A program made the position numbers and the translations under genes. This document shows, piece by piece, positions 12,454 through 45,926 of a stretch of 64,000 nucleotides of DNA. Position 1 is the first letter of the stretch, and the number at the start of each line of letters is the position of its first letter. The DNA comes from a virus, in IMG/VR virus record IMGVR_UViG_3300035670_000062, positions 1 to 64,000 of that record. One strand, 5' to 3'. A model generated the notes under the pieces. That model did no database searches. It was not told the DNA's origin and was given only the letters and a program-made list of their open reading frames with translations.

Positions 12454-12473
12454 TAATCACTTCATGTAAAATG

Positions 12474-12505
12474 TTTGGCTCCATAAGGAGCCATTCGTAT
12501 CTTCA
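12474..12505 (+). promoter_or_regulatory. Promoter with TGGCTCC-N4-GGAGCCA inverted repeat
   Basis: Repeated motif. Confidence 0.7.
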
Positions 12506-12543
12506 TATTATAAAATTAATTAATAAAAAAAAATAAAACAAAT

Positions 12544-17794: not shown

Positions 17795-19270
17795 ATGAGT
17801 TTAAAAATTAATCCTTTACTGATGACAGATGGATACAAAACAAGTCATAGACTTATGTATCCACCAAAAACAACTCTTGTATATAGTAATTATACTTGTA
17901 GAAGTGCTAAATATATGCCTGACATAGCTAAAAATGTTGTTGTGTTTGGCATTCAATATACATTTAGATATATTGATGACATATTCAGAAATGAATTTTT
18001 TAGTAGAGACAAATATCAAGTATGTCAAGAAGCTAAACAATATTTAAGTTCTTATTTAGGGACTGATTATGATGTATCACATTTTGAGGAATTACATGAT
18101 TTAGGTTATTTACCTATTAGGGTGAAGGCTTTGGAAGAAGGTACAGTTGTTCAAACAGGTATTCCTTTGTTTACTATTGTAAATACCCACTCCGATTTCT
18201 TTTGGATAACTAATTTTTTAGAAACTCTTATATCTACATTAATTTGGAAACCTGTACATTCAGCTTCCTTAGCTTATGGTTATAAAAAAATATTAACTAA
18301 ATATGCTGAAGAAACGGGTATAGATCCTATGTTTGTAAATTTTCAAGGACATGATTTTAGTTTTAGAGGCATGCAATCCCCAGAAGCTGCTATTAGTTCA
18401 GGAATGGGATTTTTAACATCTTTTATGGGAACCGATACATTACCTACTTTACAAGCTATAAAATATTATTATGGTGATGATAATGTAGGATTTAGCGTTC
18501 CTGCATCTGAACATAGTGTAATGTGTTCCCATGGTAAAGAAGGGGAAATAAATACTCTTAAATATCTTATGAAACAGTATCCTACAGGTATATTATCTGT
18601 AGTAAGTGATACATGGGATTTATGGAAACTTATTACAGAATATTTACCTCAACTTAAAGAAGAAATTTTATCAAGAGATGGTAAACTTGTAATTAGACCT
18701 GACAGTGGTGATCCTGTTGACATTATTTGTGGTCAACAATTTGATTATAAAATAAAAACTTCTAAACCAGAACATAAAGGAGTAATTGAACTTCTTTGGG
18801 ATATATTTGGTGGTACTGTAAATGAACAGGGTTACAAAGTGTTAGATCCTCATATTGGTTGTATTTATGGCGACAGTATTACTCCCGAAAGAGCTATTCA
18901 AATAGCTGAAAGACTTAAAGCTAAAGGATTTGCTAATCAAGTAGTATTAGGGATTGGTAGTTATTCTATGGGGTATGCCACTAGAGATAATCAAGGAGGT
19001 GCTGTTAAATCTACTTATGTAGAAGTTGATAATGAAGCTAGACCTATATTTAAAGATCCTATTACTGATGATGGTACTAAAAAATCTGCTAAGGGCTTAC
19101 TAATGGTTACTAAAGATGATTTAGAAAATTATATAGTTTTATCTAATGTTAGTAAAGGAGAAGAATCACAAGGGTTATTGAAACTTATTTACGAAGATGG
19201 TAGTTTTTATAATACTACTACATTAAATGAAATAAGAAATAGATTAGAAAGTAATATTAAACATTCATAA
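17795..19270 (+). CDS. nadV: Nicotinamide phosphoribosyltransferase-like protein (probable NARP1 Namat)
   Basis: TDGYKTSH, HDFSFRG, SVPASEHS, SVVSDTWD, IRPDSGDP, IYGDSI, KDPITDDG.KKS.KG. Confidence 0.94.
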   Translation: MSLKINPLLMTDGYKTSHRLMYPPKTTLVYSNYTCRSAKYMPDIAKNVVVFGIQYTFRYIDDIFRNEFFSRDKYQVCQEAKQYLSSYLGTDYDVSHFEELHDLGYLPIRVKALEEGTVVQTGIPLFTIVNTHSDFFWITNFLETLISTLIWKPVHSASLAYGYKKILTKYAEETGIDPMFVNFQGHDFSFRGMQSPEAAISSGMGFLTSFMGTDTLPTLQAIKYYYGDDNVGFSVPASEHSVMCSHGKEGEINTLKYLMKQYPTGILSVVSDTWDLWKLITEYLPQLKEEILSRDGKLVIRPDSGDPVDIICGQQFDYKIKTSKPEHKGVIELLWDIFGGTVNEQGYKVLDPHIGCIYGDSITPERAIQIAERLKAKGFANQVVLGIGSYSMGYATRDNQGGAVKSTYVEVDNEARPIFKDPITDDGTKKSAKGLLMVTKDDLENYIVLSNVSKGEESQGLLKLIYEDGSFYNTTTLNEIRNRLESNIKHS

Positions 19271-22824: not shown

Positions 22825-22850
22825 TATATTAAAACTTTTCTTACAAAATG

Positions 22851-22882
22851 TTTGGCTCCCCAAGGAGCCATTCGTATTTTTA
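22851..22882 (+). promoter_or_regulatory. Promoter with TGGCTCC-N4-GGAGCCA inverted repeat
   Basis: Repeated motif. Confidence 0.7.
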
Positions 22883-22901
22883 TATCATAATAAAAAATAA
22901 C

Positions 22902-24372: not shown

Positions 24373-24726
24373 ATGGATAGAATAGAAATAAATGGAATAT
24401 GGTATGTTCGGGAAGACATGTCTACTAATGTAGAAATTGCTAATGAAGTAACTATTTTTGAAGGTGCAGTTTGGGAAGATGATATGTGGTGTTTTGAAGC
24501 TGCTAGGATAAAGAAGGAAGATGGGAGTTTCTATGATGGTTTCAGTATTGATGTTTTAAATAAAAAAACGGAAAAAAAAGACTATATTGATAATATGTTT
24601 TATATGGATGGATTAATAGAAGGATTAGATGAATCTATTAAAGATGCTAAAATATATTTAGATGATAGAGGAATAAATAGTTTAATATCATTTATAAAAT
24701 ATTTAAAAAACGAAGGGTGGTCATGA
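24373..24726 (+). CDS. Hypothetical protein
   Basis: ORF track. Confidence 0.65.
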   Translation: MDRIEINGIWYVREDMSTNVEIANEVTIFEGAVWEDDMWCFEAARIKKEDGSFYDGFSIDVLNKKTEKKDYIDNMFYMDGLIEGLDESIKDAKIYLDDRGINSLISFIKYLKNEGWS

Positions 24727-25658
24727 ATAAATTAGATAAAGATTATCAAAATCTTGTAAAAGATATACTAGAAAATGGTGTGATTAAATCAGATCGCACG
24801 GGAACGGGTACAATAAGTCTATTTGGTAAACAAATTAGACATAAAATGAGTGATGGTTTTCCTTTACTTACAACTAAAAAGATGCCATTTAAAACAATTG
24901 TAACTGAGCTTCTTTGGTTTCTCCGTGGAGATTCAGATATTCGTTTTTTATGGAAAAATAATTGCCATATTTGGAATGGAGATTGGTATAAACAATATTC
25001 AAAATCTTGTTCAAATCCTTATTCATTAGAAGAAATGATTAAGTTTGGATTAGAATGGGAACAAAACTCAAGAAATTTTCATAGGTCTATTTGGGATTTA
25101 GGTCCTATCTATGGTCGTCAGTGGAGAAATTGGGATGCTATTTTTGATGGAGGAATAGATCAAATCACAAACCTAATCAACGACCTTAAAACAAATCCAG
25201 ACTCAAGGAGATTAATAGTCTCAGCTTGGAATGTAAGTGAATTAGATAAAATGATTCTTCCTCCTTGTCATAATTTTTTTCAAATGTACTCTATTGAAAA
25301 AGAAGGAAAACGTTATTTAAGCATTATGGTTAATATCAGGTCTAATGATATACCTTTAGGATTACCATTTAATATAGCAAGTTATGGTTTACTACTTGAA
25401 ATTATAGCTAAAGAAGTAAACATGATTTCAGATGAACTTATAATTAATATAGGAGATGCTCATATTTATTTAAATCAAATAGAAGGAATTAAAGAACAAT
25501 TAAATAGAGAACCATTCCAATTACCTAAATTAAAAATTAAACAACATTCTATTGATGAACCAAGTCCCTTAACAAAACCCCAATATTGGTATCCTGAGGA
25601 TTTTGTAGTTGGAAATTACCAATCTCATCCTACTATTAAACTTCCCTTATCAAATTAA
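24723..25658 (+). CDS. thyA: Thymidylate synthase
   Basis: DRTGTGT, FPLLTTKK, ELLWF, GPIYGRQWR, SRR, LPPCH, RSND.PLGLPFN, DAHIY. Confidence 0.97.
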   Translation: MNKLDKDYQNLVKDILENGVIKSDRTGTGTISLFGKQIRHKMSDGFPLLTTKKMPFKTIVTELLWFLRGDSDIRFLWKNNCHIWNGDWYKQYSKSCSNPYSLEEMIKFGLEWEQNSRNFHRSIWDLGPIYGRQWRNWDAIFDGGIDQITNLINDLKTNPDSRRLIVSAWNVSELDKMILPPCHNFFQMYSIEKEGKRYLSIMVNIRSNDIPLGLPFNIASYGLLLEIIAKEVNMISDELIINIGDAHIYLNQIEGIKEQLNREPFQLPKLKIKQHSIDEPSPLTKPQYWYPEDFVVGNYQSHPTIKLPLSN

Positions 25659-25675
25659 AAATAAATGGGGATTTG

Positions 25676-25707
25676 TTTGGTTGTTCAAAAAATGATTCGT
25701 ATCTTTA
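25676..25707 (+). promoter_or_regulatory. Early-type promoter
   Basis: TTTG-N20-TATCTTTA. Confidence 0.7.
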
Positions 25708-25737
25708 TAATATAAGAAACAAATAAAAATAAAAGTT

Positions 25738-26376: not shown

Positions 26377-27717
26377 ATGAAATTAGAAATTTTAGAAAAC
26401 AGTAAAAATTATACATGCTCAGTTGTAGAAATACGAGATGTATTTGACATTGAAGGAGCAGATAACATTAAGAGAACTATTGTAAATGGTAATACAGTAG
26501 TCATACCTAAATCAGTTAATATAGGCGATAAAATGCTATATTTTGTGTCGGGTACTAAATTATCACATGATTATTGTCATAAAAATAATTTATACGATAA
26601 GAGTGAGGAAAACTATGATAATACTAAAAAAGGTTTTATCTCATTTAAAAATAAAAGAGTAAAAGCAATTAAACTCAGAGGTATTATCTCAGATGGTATG
26701 TTAATGAGTTTAGATTCATTATTACCATTTATTGAAAAAGGAAACATTTTTTCATTAAAAGTAGGAGATGAATTTAATACTATTAATGGTAATATATTAT
26801 GTGAAAAATATATTGTTGTTGAAAAAAATTCAGGGTTAAGTAATAAGTCTCAAAAAACAAAAACTCCTAAAATATCTAGATTAGTTGACAATCAATTTCA
26901 TTTTCATAATGACACTTCTAATCTTAGAAAAAATATACATAAGATAGATCCTAATGACACTATTAGTATTCATTATAAAAAACATGGTACTAGTTTTGTT
27001 GCAGGAAATATTTTAGTAAAAAAGAATTTAAAATGGTATGAAAAGTTCCTACAAAAACTAGGAGTAAATATTGTAGATACTGAATATGATGTTGTTTATT
27101 CTTCAAGGAAAGTAGTTAAAAATCAACATTTAAATTCTAATACTGAGCATTTCTATCAAGATGATATTTGGGGGTTGGTTACGAAGGATATTAAACATTT
27201 AATACCTAAGAATTGGACATTATATGGTGAGATAGTAGGATACACTCCATGGGGTTCACCCATACAAGGTAAATATGATTATGGTTGCAAACCAGGAGAA
27301 TATAAAACTTACATATATAAAATATCTATTGTTAATCCTGATGGTAAAGTTATTTATCTAACTGATAAACAAATTCAGGAATGGTGTGATAAAGTAGGAT
27401 TATTATATTCAGATACCTTTATTTATTATGGTACTATAGATAGTTTATTTGAAAGTATGGAATTTAATGATTGGGATGCTTTGCATAGGGAAGTAGAAAG
27501 AGATACTTGGCAGGAAACATTATTAGATTATTTAGAATATAAATACAATGAAAAAGACTGTTACATGTGTATAAATAAAGTTCCAGAAGAAGGTATTATT
27601 CTTAGAGTTGAAAAATTTGAGGAATATGAAGCATACAAACTTAAATCCAAAAGATTTACTCTGATGGAATCAGATGAACAAGAAAATGGAGTAAGTAATA
27701 TTGAGGATAATAACTAA
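26377..27717 (+). CDS. RNA ligase (Rnl2/DRB0094-like) with N-terminal OB/tRNA-binding-like domain
   Basis: IEGADNI, RVKAIKLRG.ISDG, motif I KKHGTS, SSR, YGEIVG, EEGIILR, KLKS. Confidence 0.85.
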   Translation: MKLEILENSKNYTCSVVEIRDVFDIEGADNIKRTIVNGNTVVIPKSVNIGDKMLYFVSGTKLSHDYCHKNNLYDKSEENYDNTKKGFISFKNKRVKAIKLRGIISDGMLMSLDSLLPFIEKGNIFSLKVGDEFNTINGNILCEKYIVVEKNSGLSNKSQKTKTPKISRLVDNQFHFHNDTSNLRKNIHKIDPNDTISIHYKKHGTSFVAGNILVKKNLKWYEKFLQKLGVNIVDTEYDVVYSSRKVVKNQHLNSNTEHFYQDDIWGLVTKDIKHLIPKNWTLYGEIVGYTPWGSPIQGKYDYGCKPGEYKTYIYKISIVNPDGKVIYLTDKQIQEWCDKVGLLYSDTFIYYGTIDSLFESMEFNDWDALHREVERDTWQETLLDYLEYKYNEKDCYMCINKVPEEGIILRVEKFEEYEAYKLKSKRFTLMESDEQENGVSNIEDNN

Positions 27718-30052: not shown

Positions 30053-30126
30053 GGACTCGTAGCTCAGGTGGTTAGAGCAAGAAACTCATAATTTCGAGGT
30101 CGGGAGTTCGAATCTCTCCGGGTCCA
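30053..30126 (+). tRNA. tRNA with CAT anticodon (Ile2 or elongator Met)
   Basis: Cloverleaf, GGACTCG/CGGGTCC acceptor, CT-CAT-AA loop, GTTCGAAT. Confidence 0.9.
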
Positions 30127-30147
30127 CTACATATTTATAAGATATAT

Positions 30148-30218
30148 CGCGGTTTGGTGTAATTGGTAGCATTCAGGGCTCATAACCCAGAGGCCAGGTT
30201 CGAGTCCTGAATCCGCAA
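30148..30218 (+). tRNA. tRNA-fMet(CAT)
   Basis: C1:A72 mismatch, GGG/CCC anticodon stem. Confidence 0.9.
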
Positions 30219-30228
30219 CTAAAAATAA

Positions 30229-30314
30229 GCATCTATGGCGGAATTGGTAGACGCGCGGGACTTAAAATCCCGTCCTCAGAAATGGGGGTGTAGGTTCGAT
30301 TCCTACTTGATGCA
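30229..30314 (+). tRNA. tRNA-Leu(TAA)
   Basis: Cloverleaf with long variable arm. Confidence 0.92.
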
Positions 30315-30323
30315 CTTAAATAA

Positions 30324-30394
30324 TGCCGAATCGTCTAATGGCAGGACATTAGGTTTTGGTCCTAAGTGTGGAGGTTCGAATCCTTCTTCGGCAA
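30324..30394 (+). tRNA. tRNA-Gln(TTG)
   Basis: TTAGG-TTTTGGT-CCTAA anticodon arm. Confidence 0.92.
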
Positions 30395-30402
30395 CATAAA
30401 AT

Positions 30403-30474
30403 GCTCCGTTCGACAAGTGGTTAAGTCATTGCCCTTTCACGGCAAAGTCACGGGTTCGAATCCCGTACGGAGTA
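30403..30474 (+). tRNA. tRNA-Glu(TTC)
   Basis: TTGCC-CTTTCAC-GGCAA anticodon arm. Confidence 0.93.
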
Positions 30475-30506
30475 CTAAATATTAAATTAAAATAAATAAA
30501 TCGGTT

Positions 30507-31433
30507 ATGAAAAACAAATCATTGGCTACAAAAGGGTTATCAATTTCTCAAGCACAATCAATTTCTAATCTTTGTTTTCAAAGAGCAAGAGAAATAGCTG
30601 CGGAATTATCTAAAGTAAATAATAGTTCTAAAACTATTTTTATTGATGGTTTAGAATTTACTAAACAACAACCTAATCCAATACCTGAAAATGTAATTAG
30701 TTTGCTTGAATTAAAAGCTAAATTACATGCAACTCAAGCATTTCTAATGGAAAATATTAAAGCTAAGGATCAATTAATTAAATCTATTAAATTTGAAGAG
30801 CTAGATTTATCTGAATTTTCATCATTGAATCCTAGACCCGTTATGGAAACATATTCAGAAAAATTACCTGAATTAGTAGATGAAATTTTGGGATGGGGTC
30901 AGTTATCTGAAACAGAGTATAATGAATATTTAGAGGCTGAGGCTTATGCTTCTCATATAGGTCAATTTATCCATAAAGATGGTAAATTAGATATTTTAAG
31001 AAATGAACTTTCTAGCATGGATTCATTAGAATTTATGGAGATAGAAACAGGCAAAAAGACTCCAGTTAGAGTAAGTTCACATCATACTCCTGAGCAGCTT
31101 TATAATATCCATGAACAATTGGCTACGTTGCATAGAAAATATGAGCAAAAAGTTAATTATTTTAAGGCTAAAGTTAAGAACCTAGTCACAATGGAAAATG
31201 CTAGGATTTCTAAAGAAAAACAAATTATATCTTCTAGGATTGAGTCTAAAAATAAAGAATTAAAAGAAAAATATGAATCAGAAATGAATGAGTATTCTAA
31301 TAAAATTAGCAATGAAATATTTAAATTTGAAGAAGCTAAATATGATAGAATCAAAGAAGCATCAGAACTTAAAATTAATGTTGATAGTAGGTTTCAAGAT
31401 GTTGTAGATATGTTTTTAAATAAAATTGAATAA
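30507..31433 (+). CDS. Helical/coiled-coil hypothetical protein (EAEAYASHIGQFIHKDG motif)
   Basis: ORF track; directly followed by a long structured non-coding element. Confidence 0.8.
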   Translation: MKNKSLATKGLSISQAQSISNLCFQRAREIAAELSKVNNSSKTIFIDGLEFTKQQPNPIPENVISLLELKAKLHATQAFLMENIKAKDQLIKSIKFEELDLSEFSSLNPRPVMETYSEKLPELVDEILGWGQLSETEYNEYLEAEAYASHIGQFIHKDGKLDILRNELSSMDSLEFMEIETGKKTPVRVSSHHTPEQLYNIHEQLATLHRKYEQKVNYFKAKVKNLVTMENARISKEKQIISSRIESKNKELKEKYESEMNEYSNKISNEIFKFEEAKYDRIKEASELKINVDSRFQDVVDMFLNKIE

Positions 31434-31437
31434 TATT

Positions 31438-31797
31438 GTGGTGGTAATTTAGGGAGTAGACATAAGTTGATCTCCCTAAATTTTTATATAAAGGAATAAA
31501 GATACATGTAAATTAATATTGACTTATGCATTAAGATGCATATACATATAATTATTTGTAAAATAATTAAAACAAAATTATATCGCTCCTTTTACAATAA
31601 AAATAATCTGAGATAGAACTCATCCAATATTCAGGTTACTGAAATTCATAGAGAAAGTATAAAAACTTTACCACTAGACAGATAATTGAATATTAAAAGA
31701 GACTTAGCATTTGACATTGCCTTTATGTAAAAGGAGGTCTTTGAATTTGTTGTTGAATTTGATTTAGTCTATTTTCTTTATTTCTTTATAACACCAT
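31438..31797 (+). ncRNA. Putative large structured ncRNA (~360 nt)
   Basis: Nested helices 31487-31502/31775-31790 (16 bp), 31586-31596/31726-31736 (11 bp), 31446-31456/31472-31482; loop pseudoknot to 31519-31528. Confidence 0.7.
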
Positions 31798-31810
31798 TTA
31801 TTGTATTTTG

Positions 31811-31842
31811 TTTGGCTCCCCAGGGAGCCATTCGTATCTTTA
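31811..31842 (+). promoter_or_regulatory. Promoter with TGGCTCC-N4-GGAGCCA inverted repeat
   Basis: Repeated motif. Confidence 0.75.
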
Positions 31843-31872
31843 GTATATAAGAAACAAATAAAAATAAAAGTT

Positions 31873-32778
31873 ATGACAACACAAACAAAAATGAAAATTG
31901 GTTACGATTCAATTACTAAATTGTATACATTCTTAAATGGGGATTTTTTATATAATGGTAAATCAACAAAAGATCCATTAAGAGCTAATACTTACAATAC
32001 CTTAATTACAACCTCAGAAAAACCAATTACAATTGAAAAATCAACTTCTATAAAGAAATTAATTGGATATCAAAATGAAAAAGATAATACTATTATATCT
32101 CAAGATGAATATGATAATTTATTAGAAGGGATTAATAAAGAGTGGAATGATGATGAAAATGAATGGGAATTTGGAAATATAGAAGACGAGATAAAATATA
32201 ATATTATATGTAAATCTTATACTCCCAAATATGAATATGAAACTCAATTAACTCAAATCGAATTTGAAATAATTGAATATCCAGCAAGTCAATATGATGA
32301 AATTATTCCATTATATTCATTAGATGCTAAAAATATTTTTGAAACTAAATGTACTTTTACTCCAAATCTATTTAAAACTTTTAGAGAAATATGTGAAAGG
32401 GAATATGGAATAGAAGCCAAAAATATAGAAAATGCAACTCATTCAGGAATTAGATATATAAAAATTAATAATGAATATATTCAAGGAATGGATGATTTTA
32501 ATATGAGATATAATAAATCTATTATAGATTCATATGATGGATGTATTGAAAGAATGGATACTCTTAAAAAAGATTTAAATAATATATTATCATTTCATTT
32601 TGCTAAAAAATCTCAAAAAATTCTAGATACTACTACATTAGGAGGATTTTTAACCGAATTAGATTCTATTAGAAATACCATTTATAAGTTAGAAATCAAA
32701 ACTAAAAGTTATGGAGATTACCAAAATGCATGTGGAAAAATCAATAAATTAATTAATCTAATCATTGAAAAAAATTAA
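31873..32778 (+). CDS. Hypothetical protein
   Basis: Start moved to AAAGTTATG at 31873. Confidence 0.75.
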   Translation: MTTQTKMKIGYDSITKLYTFLNGDFLYNGKSTKDPLRANTYNTLITTSEKPITIEKSTSIKKLIGYQNEKDNTIISQDEYDNLLEGINKEWNDDENEWEFGNIEDEIKYNIICKSYTPKYEYETQLTQIEFEIIEYPASQYDEIIPLYSLDAKNIFETKCTFTPNLFKTFREICEREYGIEAKNIENATHSGIRYIKINNEYIQGMDDFNMRYNKSIIDSYDGCIERMDTLKKDLNNILSFHFAKKSQKILDTTTLGGFLTELDSIRNTIYKLEIKTKSYGDYQNACGKINKLINLIIEKN

Positions 32779-33206: not shown

Positions 33207-33225
33207 TAATTTCTATTTGATTTTG

Positions 33226-33257
33226 TTTGGCTCCCCAGGGAGCCATTCGTATCTTTA
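33226..33257 (+). promoter_or_regulatory. Promoter with TGGCTCC-N4-GGAGCCA inverted repeat
   Basis: Repeated motif. Confidence 0.75.
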
Positions 33258-33281
33258 GCGTATAAGAAACAAATAAAAGTT

Positions 33282-33686: not shown

Positions 33687-33697
33687 GTAATGATTTG

Positions 33698-33729
33698 TTT
33701 GGCTCCACAAGGAGCCATTTGTATCTTTA
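33698..33729 (+). promoter_or_regulatory. Promoter with TGGCTCC-N4-GGAGCCA inverted repeat
   Basis: Repeated motif. Confidence 0.7.
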
Positions 33730-33773
33730 GCGTATAAGAAATTAAAAATAATTGTAGAAGAAATAGAAAAAAT

Positions 33774-34847
33774 ATGAAAAAATTACCAACATTATATAAG
33801 TATAATACTAAAAATAAAGCTCAACAATGGGAAATTATTGTTGAGGGAAATTCATTTTACACCATAGAGGGATTGGTAGATGGTAAATTAACTATTTCTT
33901 CTTCTACATTATGTGAATCTAAAAATGTAGGTAAATCAAATGAAACTACTCCTCAAGAACAAGCTTTTTTTGAAGCTAAAGCTAAATGGCAAAAGAAACT
34001 AGATGAAGGTTATAATGAAGTTTTAACTACTCAAGTTAAATTTATTAAACCTATGTTAGCTCAAAAATATGAAGATTATAAGAAATTAATGTTTAAAAAT
34101 AGAACATTTATTCAACCTAAATTAGATGGTTTAAGATGTGTAAATGGGAGTAATAAACAAATGAGTAGAACAGGTAAAGAATATTTGTCTACTCCTCATT
34201 TAAATCAATCAACTACATTATTAGATGGTGAGTTATATTCCCATGAGTATAAACATGATTTTAATACTATAGTAAGTTTATGTCGTAAGACTAAACCTAC
34301 AAAAGAAGACATTGAGTTGAGTTCTAAAATAATTGAATATTGGATATATGATTTACCTAATGATGGTAGAGTATTTTCTAAAAGATTTGAAGATGTTTTA
34401 AAATTAGTTGAATTAAATCCCATGTTTAAAGTAGTACCTACGTATGAGGTTTTTAATGAAGAAGATATCGAAAAATATCACTTACAGTTTATCGAAGAAG
34501 GATATGAGGGAAGTATTATTAGAATGGATATGGGAGGTTACGAAAATAAAAGAAGTAAACAATTATTGAAAAAGAAAGATTGGATGGATGAAGAGTTTAC
34601 AATATTAGATATAGAATCAGGTAAGGGACAGTTGAGTGAAATTGCTGCTAGACTTATACTTCAACTACCTAATGGTGAAACTTTTAATAGTGCATTAAAT
34701 TGTAATCATGAAGAAATGAGTAGAATTTTTGTTAATAAAGAAAGTATAATAGGTAGACAAGCTACTGTTAAGTTTTTTGATTACACTCCAGATGGAAAAC
34801 CTAGATTTCCAAAAGTTGTAGTTATTGATAGATGGAGTTTTGAATAA
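33774..34847 (+). CDS. lig: ATP-dependent DNA ligase
   Basis: PMLA, KLDGLRC, LDGELY, YDL, EGYEGSIIR, KRS..LLKKK, PRFP. Confidence 0.93.
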   Translation: MKKLPTLYKYNTKNKAQQWEIIVEGNSFYTIEGLVDGKLTISSSTLCESKNVGKSNETTPQEQAFFEAKAKWQKKLDEGYNEVLTTQVKFIKPMLAQKYEDYKKLMFKNRTFIQPKLDGLRCVNGSNKQMSRTGKEYLSTPHLNQSTTLLDGELYSHEYKHDFNTIVSLCRKTKPTKEDIELSSKIIEYWIYDLPNDGRVFSKRFEDVLKLVELNPMFKVVPTYEVFNEEDIEKYHLQFIEEGYEGSIIRMDMGGYENKRSKQLLKKKDWMDEEFTILDIESGKGQLSEIAARLILQLPNGETFNSALNCNHEEMSRIFVNKESIIGRQATVKFFDYTPDGKPRFPKVVVIDRWSFE

Positions 34848-37578: not shown

Positions 37579-37596
37579 CATATATTTATTTTAAAT

Positions 37597-37673: not shown

Positions 37674-37847
37674 TATTTTACTGGATTGGGCCAGTTAAAA
37701 TAGTTGCTTAAGCCCAAAGCGTTATATTACATAATATAGATGCAATGCATGTAGTTTAGCAGCTTAGACACCATTCGAGTGAAAGCTGTAGGGATAGATA
37801 CCTAGTATTTTAAGAGAAGAATAGTAACTTAATCTCAAACCATCTAT
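37674..37847 (+). ncRNA. Putative pseudoknotted RNA at the 3' end of the tRNA operon
   Basis: Hairpin 37674-37702 whose loop TTGGG matches CCCAA 37713-37717; AGTTGCT/AGCAGCT; ATAGATG/CATCTAT. Confidence 0.5.
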
Positions 37848-37856
37848 GCGAATTTG

Positions 37857-37888
37857 TTTGGCTCCTCAGGGAGCCATTCGTATCTTTA
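37857..37888 (+). promoter_or_regulatory. Promoter with TGGCTCC-N4-GGAGCCA inverted repeat
   Basis: Repeated motif. Confidence 0.75.
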
Positions 37889-37918
37889 TGGTATAAGAAA
37901 CAAATAAAAATAAAAGTT

Positions 37919-44828: not shown

Positions 44829-45836
44829 ATGAAAAAATATATATTCCCTTTTATAATTGCTCTATCTGCAATTAGTGTTAGTGCGTCTGCTGCTTTCTAT
44901 AGTGTATATGGTTTATTTAAATTATTTAGTGGTGCAGGTATTGCTATTATTATTATGGCTTCTGCACTTGAAATATCAAAATTAGTAGTAGCTTCATTGT
45001 TACATCAGTATTGGAAGGAGTTAAATAAGTTACTTAAAATATATTTGTCTGTAGCTTTAGGGATATTAATGCTTATTACTAGTTTAGGTATATATGGATT
45101 TTTAACTCATTCATATCAGCAAACATATAATGCATCTATGATGGTTGAAAATCAATTAGAATTAATTGAAAATAAACTCGATTATTTTAATAATAATATA
45201 GATAATATAAACTCACAAATATCCCTTAAATCTCAACGAATTATCACTTTAGTTGAACTTAGAACTCAACAAGAAACTAGATTAGATTCATTATATAATA
45301 AAAATAAATACAAACAAGCTAAAGCAACTGAAGGGGTTATATTTGAAGCTAATAATGATATTAAGTTTTTGGAAAAGGAAATGGATACTTTAAATATAAA
45401 TTTAAATAAATGGAATGATTCAATTAATATTACTAAATATAAAATATTAGAATTAACCAACAATAATCAAGCTTCAGCTGAGTTAGGTCCCTTAAAATAT
45501 TTATCAAACCTATTAAATAAACCAATGGATCAGATTATAAATTGGTATATGCTTTTAATCATATTTGTATTTGATCCTTTAGCTATAGCTTTAGTATTAG
45601 TTGCTAATTTTACTTTTTCAAAGATTAAACCTAAAAAATTATATTATACTAAAGATTCACCTGTTATATATGAAGAAAAGAAGGAGGAAATAATCTCCCA
45701 ACAAAGTGATTTACCTGAAGATGTAATTGATATTGATGATAGAATTAGTAACATATTGAATAGTGATTTAAGTGAAAAAAAGAAAAATAAAATAATTAAT
45801 CAAATAAAAAATGATGATTTAACTATAAATTATTAA
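44829..45836 (+). CDS. Multi-TM coiled-coil membrane protein
   Basis: Three N-terminal TMs, ELGPLKYL, IIFVFDPLAI. Confidence 0.75.
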   Translation: MKKYIFPFIIALSAISVSASAAFYSVYGLFKLFSGAGIAIIIMASALEISKLVVASLLHQYWKELNKLLKIYLSVALGILMLITSLGIYGFLTHSYQQTYNASMMVENQLELIENKLDYFNNNIDNINSQISLKSQRIITLVELRTQQETRLDSLYNKNKYKQAKATEGVIFEANNDIKFLEKEMDTLNINLNKWNDSINITKYKILELTNNNQASAELGPLKYLSNLLNKPMDQIINWYMLLIIFVFDPLAIALVLVANFTFSKIKPKKLYYTKDSPVIYEEKKEEIISQQSDLPEDVIDIDDRISNILNSDLSEKKKNKIINQIKNDDLTINY

Positions 45837-45855
45837 AACCACTTCTATGAATTTG

Positions 45856-45887
45856 TTTGGCTCCACAGGGAGCCATTCGTATCTTTA
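45856..45887 (+). promoter_or_regulatory. Promoter with TGGCTCC-N4-GGAGCCA inverted repeat
   Basis: Repeated motif. Confidence 0.75.
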
Positions 45888-45926
45888 TATTATAAGATTA
45901 ATTAATAAAAACAAAAAATAAAAGTT

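Follow-up and report, generated by a model that had tools for sequence, protein, structure and literature searches.

Positions 1 to 64,000 of the IMG/VR record IMGVR_UViG_3300035670_000062 (the window, meaning the whole stretch of DNA analysed here) are AT-rich, come from a 113-kb uncultured phage, and carry 20 tRNA genes and one Pistol ribozyme. The segment 31438–31797 on the + strand is, as judged by comparison of homologous sequences, a conserved structured RNA located directly 3′ of the gene for a 308-residue protein, P308. The P308 gene is an open reading frame (ORF) at 30507–31433 on the + strand, with its stop codon at 31431–31433. The RNA contains two tracts of hexamers in which the word UUG recurs every six bases. 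The element appears, from searches of sequence collections, to lie outside the catalogued RNA and protein families, and to constitute a new and abundant RNA–protein module of hundreds of uncultured phages. We tentatively propose, giving the idea somewhat less than an even chance, that copies of P308 line up on the hexamers and form a defined RNA–protein particle. The proposal draws on the anatomy of the RNA and on its genomic neighbourhood.

The extent of the RNA, from the 5′ strand to the 3′ strand of its closing helix P1, was delimited by alignment, RNAalifold, pair counts and an nhmmer profile; profiles of this kind were used for all RNA searches. A protein-based search of IMG/VR identified 80 loci with P308 homologues of 46–63% identity, and the DNA 3′ of the homologous genes is conserved at 70–82%. 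Alignment A1 consists of 34 diverse copies of the RNA. RNAalifold applied to A1 alone yields 36 pairs, of which 29 are compensatory. This structure was supplemented by adding P1 and by extending helices P2, P3 and H4, resulting in 52 pairs in eight helices. Changes on both sides of the pair occur in 46 of the 52 pairs among the 34 homologues. Of the cells, 88.1% are paired, compared with 36.7–51.8% when the partners are slid by one to three columns, and the covariation score of 0.499 compares with 0.10–0.17 in the slid controls. None of 500 shuffles reached the observed value of any measure. G-U or U-G combinations occupy 133 cells of this first branch of the family and A-C or C-A combinations 25. 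The excess of G-U over A-C indicates that pairing is kept on the + strand, and that the conserved entity is an RNA rather than a set of DNA palindromes.

The segment could instead act as a DNA-level element, such as a replication origin, a packaging site or a Bacteroidota TTTG promoter array, or conceal a small coding region; we give these possibilities hardly any weight. The fold z-scores relative to shuffled sequences are alike on both strands (−6.3 on the + strand and −6.0 on the opposite strand), which would suit a DNA element, and the word TTTG coincides with the −33 box of the Bacteroidota and with part of their −7 box. However, the compensatory changes preserve pairing and not sequence, and the ratios of G-U to A-C, 133:25 in the first branch and 68:6 in a divergent branch described below, show that pairing is maintained on the + strand only.

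The RNA is closed by P1, in which GTGGTG (31438–31443) pairs with CACCAT (31792–31797); all features described here are on the + strand. Five of the six P1 pairs are compensatory, and the G-C pair at alignment columns 15/461 is invariant. An invariant GGU at 31443–31445 comes after the 5′ strand of P1. Hairpin H1 (31446–31482, helices 2–4) has an 11-bp stem formed by 31446–31456 and 31472–31482, and a conserved 15-nucleotide (nt) loop with an inner 2-bp helix. The H1 loop is TAGACATAAGTTGAT in the window phage and UAAGCACAAGCCGAU in the family consensus. P2 (helix 5) joins 31487–31502 to 31775–31790 by 15 Watson–Crick pairs and one G-U pair, with changes on both sides in all 15 pairs. It is followed by an AU-rich variable region (31503–31583), which forms a variable hairpin in most homologues.

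An invariant CGC precedes the pyrimidine-rich 5′ strand of P3, CTCCTTTTACA (31586–31596). Its partner TGTAAAAGGAG (31726–31736) divides the hexamer tracts, denoted A and B, and nine of the ten P3 pairs are compensatory. Hairpin H4, CUGAG-AUAGAA-CUCA (31608–31622, helix 7), is nearly invariant. It is changed in a compensatory manner to UAGG/CCUA in locus L039 and substituted by longer hairpins in L056, L068 and L076. P5 (31626–31694, helix 8) pairs AATATTCA (31626–31633) with TGAATATT (31687–31694) around a variable hairpin; 96% of its cells are paired, and six of its eight pairs are compensatory. The 3′ end of the RNA (31775–31797) is composed of the 3′ strand of P2 (31775–31790), an invariant AAC (31790–31792) whose final base opens P1, and the 3′ strand of P1. 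The family that we propose, the P308-associated hexamer RNA, is defined by the order P1–GGU–H1–P2–variable region–P3–inner hairpins–UUG tract A–P3′–UUG tract B–P2′–AAC–P1′. The window contains this order of elements together with a same-strand gene of the P308 family.

A first-pass annotation, made from the letters of the window, had predicted much of this fold. The closing helix GTGGTG/CACCAT, the 16-bp helix 31487–31502/31775–31790, the 11-bp hairpin, the 11-bp long-range helix of CTCCTTTTACA with TGTAAAAGGAG, and the AATATTCA/TGAATATT helix are all present, as P1, P2, H1, P3 and P5, respectively, and covary in the homologues, H1 in its stem. The annotation had also proposed a pseudoknot of 10 bp between the H1 loop and 31519–31528. 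This pairing has seven contiguous pairs and is restricted to the window phage; the best complement of the H1 loop is scattered among the homologues and does not covary with it. Two further pairings were rejected. The pairing AAAACUGAG/CUUAGUUUU rivals H4 in folds of single sequences, and was discarded because H4 is swapped for unrelated longer hairpins in L056, L068 and L076, while GACUUAG is retained. A helix of AGACU with AGUCU would contain an A-C mismatch in 36 of 102 RNAs.

Hexamer tract A (31702–31725) follows a conserved GAG and reads ACTTAG CATTTG ACATTG CCTTTA in the window, with the family consensus ACUUAG UUUUUG UCUUUG CCUUUG. Tract B (31738–31773) reads TCTTTG AATTTG TTGTTG AATTTG ATTTAG, then TCTATT, and its family consensus ends in ...GUCUAUAU. 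The units have the form NN-U-U-U-G. Four of them are positioned between P5 and the 3′ strand of P3, and five between the 3′ strands of P3 and P2. Tract B is an exact match to the pattern TTG-N3 repeated four times, for which 0.83 matches are expected in the whole window. The base frequencies, determined from 102 distinct RNAs, are A 42%, U 37%, C 17% and G 4% at the first position of the hexamer, and C 45%, U 35%, A 20% and G 0% at the second. The third, fourth and fifth positions are U in 78, 98 and 85% of cases, and the sixth is G in 91%. Partition-function folding of 40–50 members did not find a consistent pairing partner for the tracts. Among 145 close pairs of RNAs, the variable hexamer positions differ at 11% and the core positions at 6%. 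The variable positions are, on this count, faster than the core, yet not hypervariable.

The six-nucleotide phase noticed in the first-pass annotation is real and conserved over 31702–31773, whereas the register given there was one base off, since the conserved units end on G. Its description of the tracts as G-phased and single-stranded agrees with the absence of consistent pairing in the folded members and with the conservation of G and of the two preceding U residues (U-1 and U-2) at 85–98% in the 102 RNAs. The phase-6 patterns found elsewhere in the database are coding regions. Coding potential was considered for the tracts and rejected: stop codons occur in every frame in many homologues, and the conserved and variable hexamer positions are out of step with codon wobble. 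Furthermore, members differ in the length of the 3′ arm of P3 that parts the tracts (11, 12 or 13 nt), so that no reading frame runs through both tracts.

The linkage of the RNA to the P308 gene is absolute wherever the sequences allow it to be tested. The nhmmer profile detected the RNA in 76 of 76 viral loci with downstream DNA; the remaining four of the 80 loci end too early. A metagenome scan added 62 loci, and the RNA is present in all 62. The converse search used an exact 15-mer from H4, which matched 120 IMG/VR stretches, 87 of which hold the whole RNA. A P308 gene lies directly upstream on the shared strand in 85 of these 87, and the end of the contig truncates the remaining two. The remaining 33 stretches are chance matches to the 15-mer, with neither gene nor RNA. 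A search with the tract A pattern AGACTTAG(N3TTG)x3 gave the same picture of gene and RNA, and its extra matches are unrelated coding regions. The tie between the RNA and the upstream protein suspected in the first-pass annotation is thus far beyond chance. Twelve neighbouring proteins of the window were compared with the flanking DNA of the 80 related loci, and none has a homologue there, which identifies the pair of gene and RNA as the conserved unit.

The RNA starts 1–10 nt past the stop codon in most loci. In the loci with long gaps, 420–974 nt separate the stop codon from the RNA core; the additional sequence follows the stop codon and leaves the RNA downstream of it intact. Insertions of 70–760 nt after the gene, reaching the size of an extra ORF, were found in 13 of 49 distinct RNAs of family 1, and the RNA is intact in all of them. 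A conserved ORF of about 90 codons, which belongs to no known family, is located between the P308 stop codon and the RNA at L012:5229–5501 and in seven other loci. Genes for HNH and GIY-YIG homing endonucleases are common just upstream of the gene–RNA pair.

Divergent relatives with 22–26% identity to P308 are encoded on 65 viral contigs, many of them about 95–100 kb long. They retain the motifs GLSxSEAxxxSN, ...AWLREAIKAK, EAxAAHIGKxIH and HRxxExKxNxYKA. Almost all of the divergent genes are followed by an ORF-free stretch of 250–460 nt, with a hairpin at the stop codon and two UUG-phased hexamer runs about 12 nt apart. In alignment A5, built from 13 divergent RNAs, the order of elements matches that of the first branch: H1, a long P2, a variable hairpin, P3, an inner hairpin, tract A, P3′, tract B, P2′ and AAC. 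Compensatory changes affect 33 of 56 pairs, and G-U combinations outnumber A-C combinations by 68 to 6. The constant word is UUUG in the first branch and YUUG in the divergent one, and drifts with the branch of the protein. The first-pass annotation had staked its proposal on homologous genes keeping the downstream structure and hexamer phase, and both are retained even at this distance. Conservation of layout and phase at 22–26% protein identity indicates that the RNA and the protein have long travelled together.

In L322 and L330, which belong to a sub-branch with 379-residue proteins, a tRNA gene and a tRNA-like sequence are located inside the variable region of the RNA. The insertion separates the 5′ hairpin from the hexamer tracts (L322:3640–4200 and L330:3637–4100). 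Processing of the tRNA would give a two-piece RNA joined by P2 and P3. In bajarodcaudo virus 1 from rodent faeces, a gene for a 58-residue hypothetical protein, XHH63432.1 (L347:6918–7094; PQ006092.1 88046–88222), is annotated at the position expected for the RNA, downstream of the P308 homologue. Judging by the relatives, this coding sequence is probably a false gene call; L288, whose protein is 82% identical to the homologue from bajarodcaudo virus 1, carries the RNA.

The surroundings of the gene and RNA are rich in tRNA genes. Five tRNA genes (30053–30475, +) end 31 nt 5′ of the P308 gene on the shared strand, in line with the position beside tRNA genes pointed out in the first-pass annotation, and no terminator was found between them and the P308 gene. 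Genes for tRNAs lie no more than 600 nt upstream in 37 of the 80 loci. Of 61 loci of the distant branch, 22 have a transfer-messenger RNA (tmRNA) gene at most 800 nt upstream, and a tRNA or tRNA-like gene begins at the 3′ end of the RNA in 17. The tmRNA genes are at L288:2078–2462 (RF00023, 73.8 bits) and in 21 other loci of the set L282–L346, in phages of about 97 kb, 22–754 nt upstream of the P308-like gene. The tRNA-like gene at L288:3638–3720, shared with about 16 sister loci, has a normal acceptor and T arm and an oversized or odd anticodon region, and is called ‘tRNA-???’ by ARAGORN. In L046, ARAGORN calls a suppressor-type ‘tRNA-Stop’ 75 nt upstream of the P308 gene, a possible sign that some of these phages recode a stop codon.

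Among the family-1 loci with 3.5-kb flanks, about a third have genes for a calcineurin-like phosphoesterase, a P-loop kinase and an Rnl-type RNA ligase after the RNA. A phosphoesterase, a kinase and an Rnl ligase make up the healing-and-sealing set of T4 tRNA repair. The ligase downstream of the RNA in the related loci is of the same family as the RNA ligase gene of the window (phrog_968/PF09414; 26377–27717, +), which is located 2.8 kb upstream of the P308 gene. The tRNA and tmRNA surroundings, together with the frequent RNA-repair neighbours, lead us to place the role of the pair in RNA or tRNA metabolism during infection. A comparable operon for RNA repair, rsr-yrlBA-rtcBA of Salmonella, combines Ro60 (Rsr) with Y RNAs (PMC7790460). 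The two systems are alike in gene order, with a gene for an RNA-binding protein (a putative one in the case of P308), then a structured RNA whose 5′ and 3′ ends pair to close it, then an RNA ligase, and in a setting of tRNA damage and repair. In contrast to Ro60, P308 is not a TROVE/vWA protein, and no Y RNA model matches the element. Unlike in the rtcBA operon, the ligase here is of the ATP-dependent Rnl type, is accompanied by a separate kinase and phosphoesterase, and occurs in about a third of loci.

The position of the RNA could mean that its role is confined to cis and that it serves as a closed, highly paired 3′ untranslated region, shielding the 3′ end of the mRNA in a tRNA-array transcript cut by RNase P, RNase Z and RNase E-type enzymes. 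The hexamer tracts would then perhaps form an operator through which P308 or a host factor tunes the synthesis of P308. The proximity of the RNA to the stop codon in the majority of loci, its constant location on the strand of the gene, and the flanking tRNA genes are all consistent with this explanation, as is the failure to find a promoter or terminator between the tRNAs, the gene and the RNA. On the other hand, the RNA is intact in the 13 family-1 loci where insertions separate it from the gene. Its size of about 360 nt, eight covarying helices and loops that are invariant at 22–26% protein identity exceed the needs of end protection, and processing of the tRNAs inside the L322 and L330 RNAs would detach most of the RNA from the mRNA. 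We consider a purely cis-acting role unlikely, though a serious contender.

Alternatively, the RNA might serve as a decoy or sponge that captures a host factor with a preference for single-stranded U-rich sequence, such as an RNase E/G/Y-type nuclease, Rho, ribosomal protein S1 or an anticodon nuclease; P308 would then load, protect or recycle the RNA. The RNA offers nine exposed U-rich units with one G each. E. coli RNase E prefers RN|WUU, and each hexamer unit resembles this motif. Even very distant phage branches retain the UUG core, as they should if it addressed a conserved target in the host, and neighbouring tRNA and RNA-repair genes are used by phages against tRNA-cutting defences. However, a sponge would need neither the strict six-base phase, nor the split into two tracts, nor an obligate partner protein, and the bases flanking the word change with the branch of the protein (UUUG or YUUG). 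We regard the decoy as rather improbable, somewhat more so than the cis-acting role.

The partner protein is defined by the motifs GLSxSQAQSxSN, QAFLMENIKAKD, EAEAYAxHIGQFIHK and HRxYEQxVNYFKAK in alignment A2. The AlphaFold2 model of P308, calculated from 27 sequences, has a mean predicted local distance difference test (pLDDT) score of 84 and a predicted template modelling (pTM) score of 0.75. It is predicted to be a helical bundle with two β-hairpins and a long, 60-residue C-terminal helix, so that ‘coiled-coil protein’, the label of the first-pass annotation, is too simple. Comparisons of P308 with Pfam, PHROGs, NCBIfam and PADLOC returned no family and no recognisable RNA-binding domain, and a sequence search of the PDB gave no match. 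Against PDB structures, the model had no Foldseek match, and the best VIA-align score among 48,161 chains, Z 7.2, is at noise level. The BFVD search with the model retrieved a member of the family only. The ESM Atlas matches to NFACT/RqcH (TM-score 0.25–0.31) and a single match to Seryl_tRNA_N were dismissed as coiled-coil noise. An internal duplication is unsupported, since hhalign of the two halves gave a probability of 0.65%. The helix faces bear several His, Glu, Asn and Gln residues that do not vary in the family and could possibly form a site for metal binding or RNA contact.

The P308 family comprises at least 2548 clusters at 90% identity, all labelled ‘hypothetical’, and 785 clusters at 50% identity. 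Its members come from freshwater, marine, sediment, and gut or faecal phages with genomes of about 100–430 kb. A DNA search and protein searches with four family members gave no match among GenBank phages. The L288 query of GenBank retrieved one uncultured relative, PQ006092.1, and one unannotated record. A search of bacterial genomes matched five contigs of metagenome-assembled genomes, which are probably mis-binned phage DNA. The P0243 query found no loci in IMG/VR, and the metagenome scan with the P0216-group profile returned family-1 loci only.

We hypothesize the following course of events for a P308–RNA particle. The RNA would likely share a transcript with the tRNA cluster and the P308 gene, and would be made as a stable RNA. 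P1 and P2 close a scaffold that H1, H4, P5 and P3 shape. The scaffold leaves two stretches with UUG every six bases single-stranded, one of four and one of five units. Copies of P308 may bind the units side by side, each copy occupying a single unit or a set number of them, and the scaffold would thereby set the number and geometry of the bound proteins and give rise to a defined particle. The logic would be that of TRAP on (G/U)AG repeats, Cas7 on CRISPR RNA (crRNA) and Vipr on vrRNA, although P308 is unrelated to these proteins. Several observations weigh against this scheme. P308 is mildly acidic, with an isoelectric point of about 6, and has none of the RNA-binding domains recognisable with Pfam, PHROGs, NCBIfam or PADLOC. 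Hexamer counts are close to one another but not fixed across the branches (3–4 plus 4–5). The gene–RNA linkage is equally expected from a purely cis-acting role of the RNA on its mRNA. The RNA-repair link, present in only about a third of the loci, may reflect the ancestry of one lineage.

TRAP, which controls transcription and translation in Bacillus, is an 11-mer of a 75-residue β-sandwich protein bound to leader RNA. The hexamer RNA resembles its target in having a conserved triplet at a fixed spacing of 5–6 nt, in single-stranded RNA, in about 9–11 units. One subunit per unit is also the logic proposed here, and the analogy is one of layout only. In contrast to TRAP, P308 is a helical orphan fold of some 300 residues, without homology to TRAP and without a match to Pfam TrpBP; the word is UUG, the units form two split tracts in a 360-nt scaffold, and the RNA is 3′ of the gene.

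In the phage-borne VIPR systems, the vrRNA contains 9–16 YNNGG units and a structured tail, and copies of Vipr, a RAMP protein with an RRM core, a G-loop and a thumb, form a filament along the RNA (bioRxiv 10.64898/2026.04.26.720920 and 10.64898/2026.04.26.720927). Both RNAs are phage-borne, alternate a constant word with two variable bases, and have a structured invariant part attached. They differ in the period, which is six here and not five, in the word, UUG and not GGY, and in the arrangement of the units, which are split 4+5 by a helix arm here. The hexamer units are embedded in the scaffold, whereas VIPR units are appended; each locus has one RNA, and there is no vap gene. The P308 model lacks the RRM/RAMP core (β-α-β-β-α-β), with no RAMPs among its PDB fold matches, and the variable bases are not hypervariable (11% against 6%), with G at 0–4%. 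In the complex of Cas7 with crRNA, the protein copies keep a six-nucleotide register, the same step as that of the hexamers, and every sixth base is treated differently (bioRxiv 10.64898/2026.04.26.720920). Unlike in that system, the P308 loci contain no CRISPR array and no repeat–spacer structure, and PADLOC, NCBIfam and Pfam detected no Cas family.

The likeness to vrRNA raises the idea that the RNA is a VIPR-like guide, in which copies of the protein grip the UUG words, and the remaining two or three bases of the units, which vary, jointly spell a gapped code for a DNA or RNA target. The alternating constant and variable segments, the number of about nine units, the structured invariant part and the phage-borne location would fit such a guide. 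Several features speak against it. The variable positions are not hypervariable in the 145 close pairs. G is excluded and 45% of the bases at the second position are C, so that the code cannot draw freely on all four letters. Each locus has a single RNA and no array, the period is not five, and the predicted P308 structure is mostly helical with two β-hairpins and no RRM/RAMP core. We judge a guide of this kind highly improbable. A further reading, which we consider a long shot, is that P308 polymerises in six-base register on the scaffolded RNA and presents the two to three non-constant bases of each unit for gapped recognition of a nucleic-acid target. If true, this would be a third independent periodic RNA–protein filament, after Cas7 on crRNA and Vipr on vrRNA, and a new RNA-guided or RNA-templated machine in phage tRNA arrays. 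Its possible targets would include damaged tRNAs, a competing element and host transcripts.

The searches for a known family of the RNA agree with the impression, already given by the first-pass annotation, of a large structured RNA of no known family; to this can now be added that the RNA covaries. The scan of the whole window against Rfam 15 at the gathering score, a check the first-pass annotation had suggested, matched only tRNAs and one Pistol ribozyme located elsewhere. At E-values up to 10, the segment 31300–32000 gave noise, with a best score of 21.9 bits against a threshold of 47, and 16 related loci gave only tRNAs and one tmRNA outside the element. The RNA is thus not a member of the Rfam families, including GOLLD, ROOL, tmRNA, RNase P, Y RNA, 6S, HEARO and the freshwater motifs, and recent preprints in which language models were used to discover non-coding RNAs do not describe it. 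A tmRNA has a tRNA-like domain, with T arm and acceptor end, and a tag reading frame that ends in a stop. Neither ARAGORN nor the Rfam tmRNA model calls the element, through whose tracts no frame is preserved, and both call the genuine tmRNA genes beside the distant relatives.

The T4 tRNA cluster holds the unexplained stable RNAs C and D, to which the hexamer RNA is similar as a non-coding RNA in a phage tRNA region. In type III toxin–antitoxin systems of the ToxIN kind, the gene for an endoribonuclease toxin is preceded by tandem repeats, each about 36 nt long. Such a system was not recognised here: the RNA is downstream of its gene, the units are 6 nt long, and PADLOC gave no match. GOLLD (RF01998) and ROOL (RF03087) are also large, ornate non-coding RNAs in phage tRNA regions. 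They form RNA-only assemblies and have no obligate partner gene (bioRxiv 10.1101/2024.12.08.627333), whereas the P308-associated RNA is tied to one protein family.

The P308 gene is followed by a gap of 439 nt, the final approximately 75 nt of which form a separate module outside the RNA (31798–31872, +). The module consists of a GC-palindrome and a promoter-like part, and the ATG of the next gene is at 31873. In relatives, a terminator hairpin occupies the place of the module after the RNA. The module occurs at least 10 times in the source genome, as a GGCTCC-N4-GGAGCC hairpin with a promoter-like part, about 45–80 nt long, on the + strand ahead of genes. Its copies in the window include those at 31798–31872, 33214–33278, 37839–37918, 45834–45916, 25695–25737, 33694–33751, 22849–22900 and 12472–12533. 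The auxiliary genes near the element encode a nicotinamide phosphoribosyltransferase (17795–19270), a thymidylate synthase (24717–25658), the RNA ligase (phrog_968; 26377–27717) and an ATP-dependent DNA ligase (33774–34847). The full-length Pistol self-cleaving ribozyme (RF02679) is located at 37680–37745 on the + strand (55.8 bits, E 1.9e-7), about 100 nt past the final gene of a second tRNA array that ends at 37579.

Retention of a 360-nt RNA with one protein over deep divergence implies a basic activity in large phages, and its location suggests a link to the biology of tRNA, tmRNA and RNA repair. The current annotation misses the RNA, and the family merits an Rfam entry. The phased UUG tracts provide a handle for mutation. 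If P308 copies do line up on the tracts, they would represent a new form of periodic RNA recognition beside those of TRAP, Cas7 and Vipr, and the RNA could possibly be used as a scaffold of defined stoichiometry.

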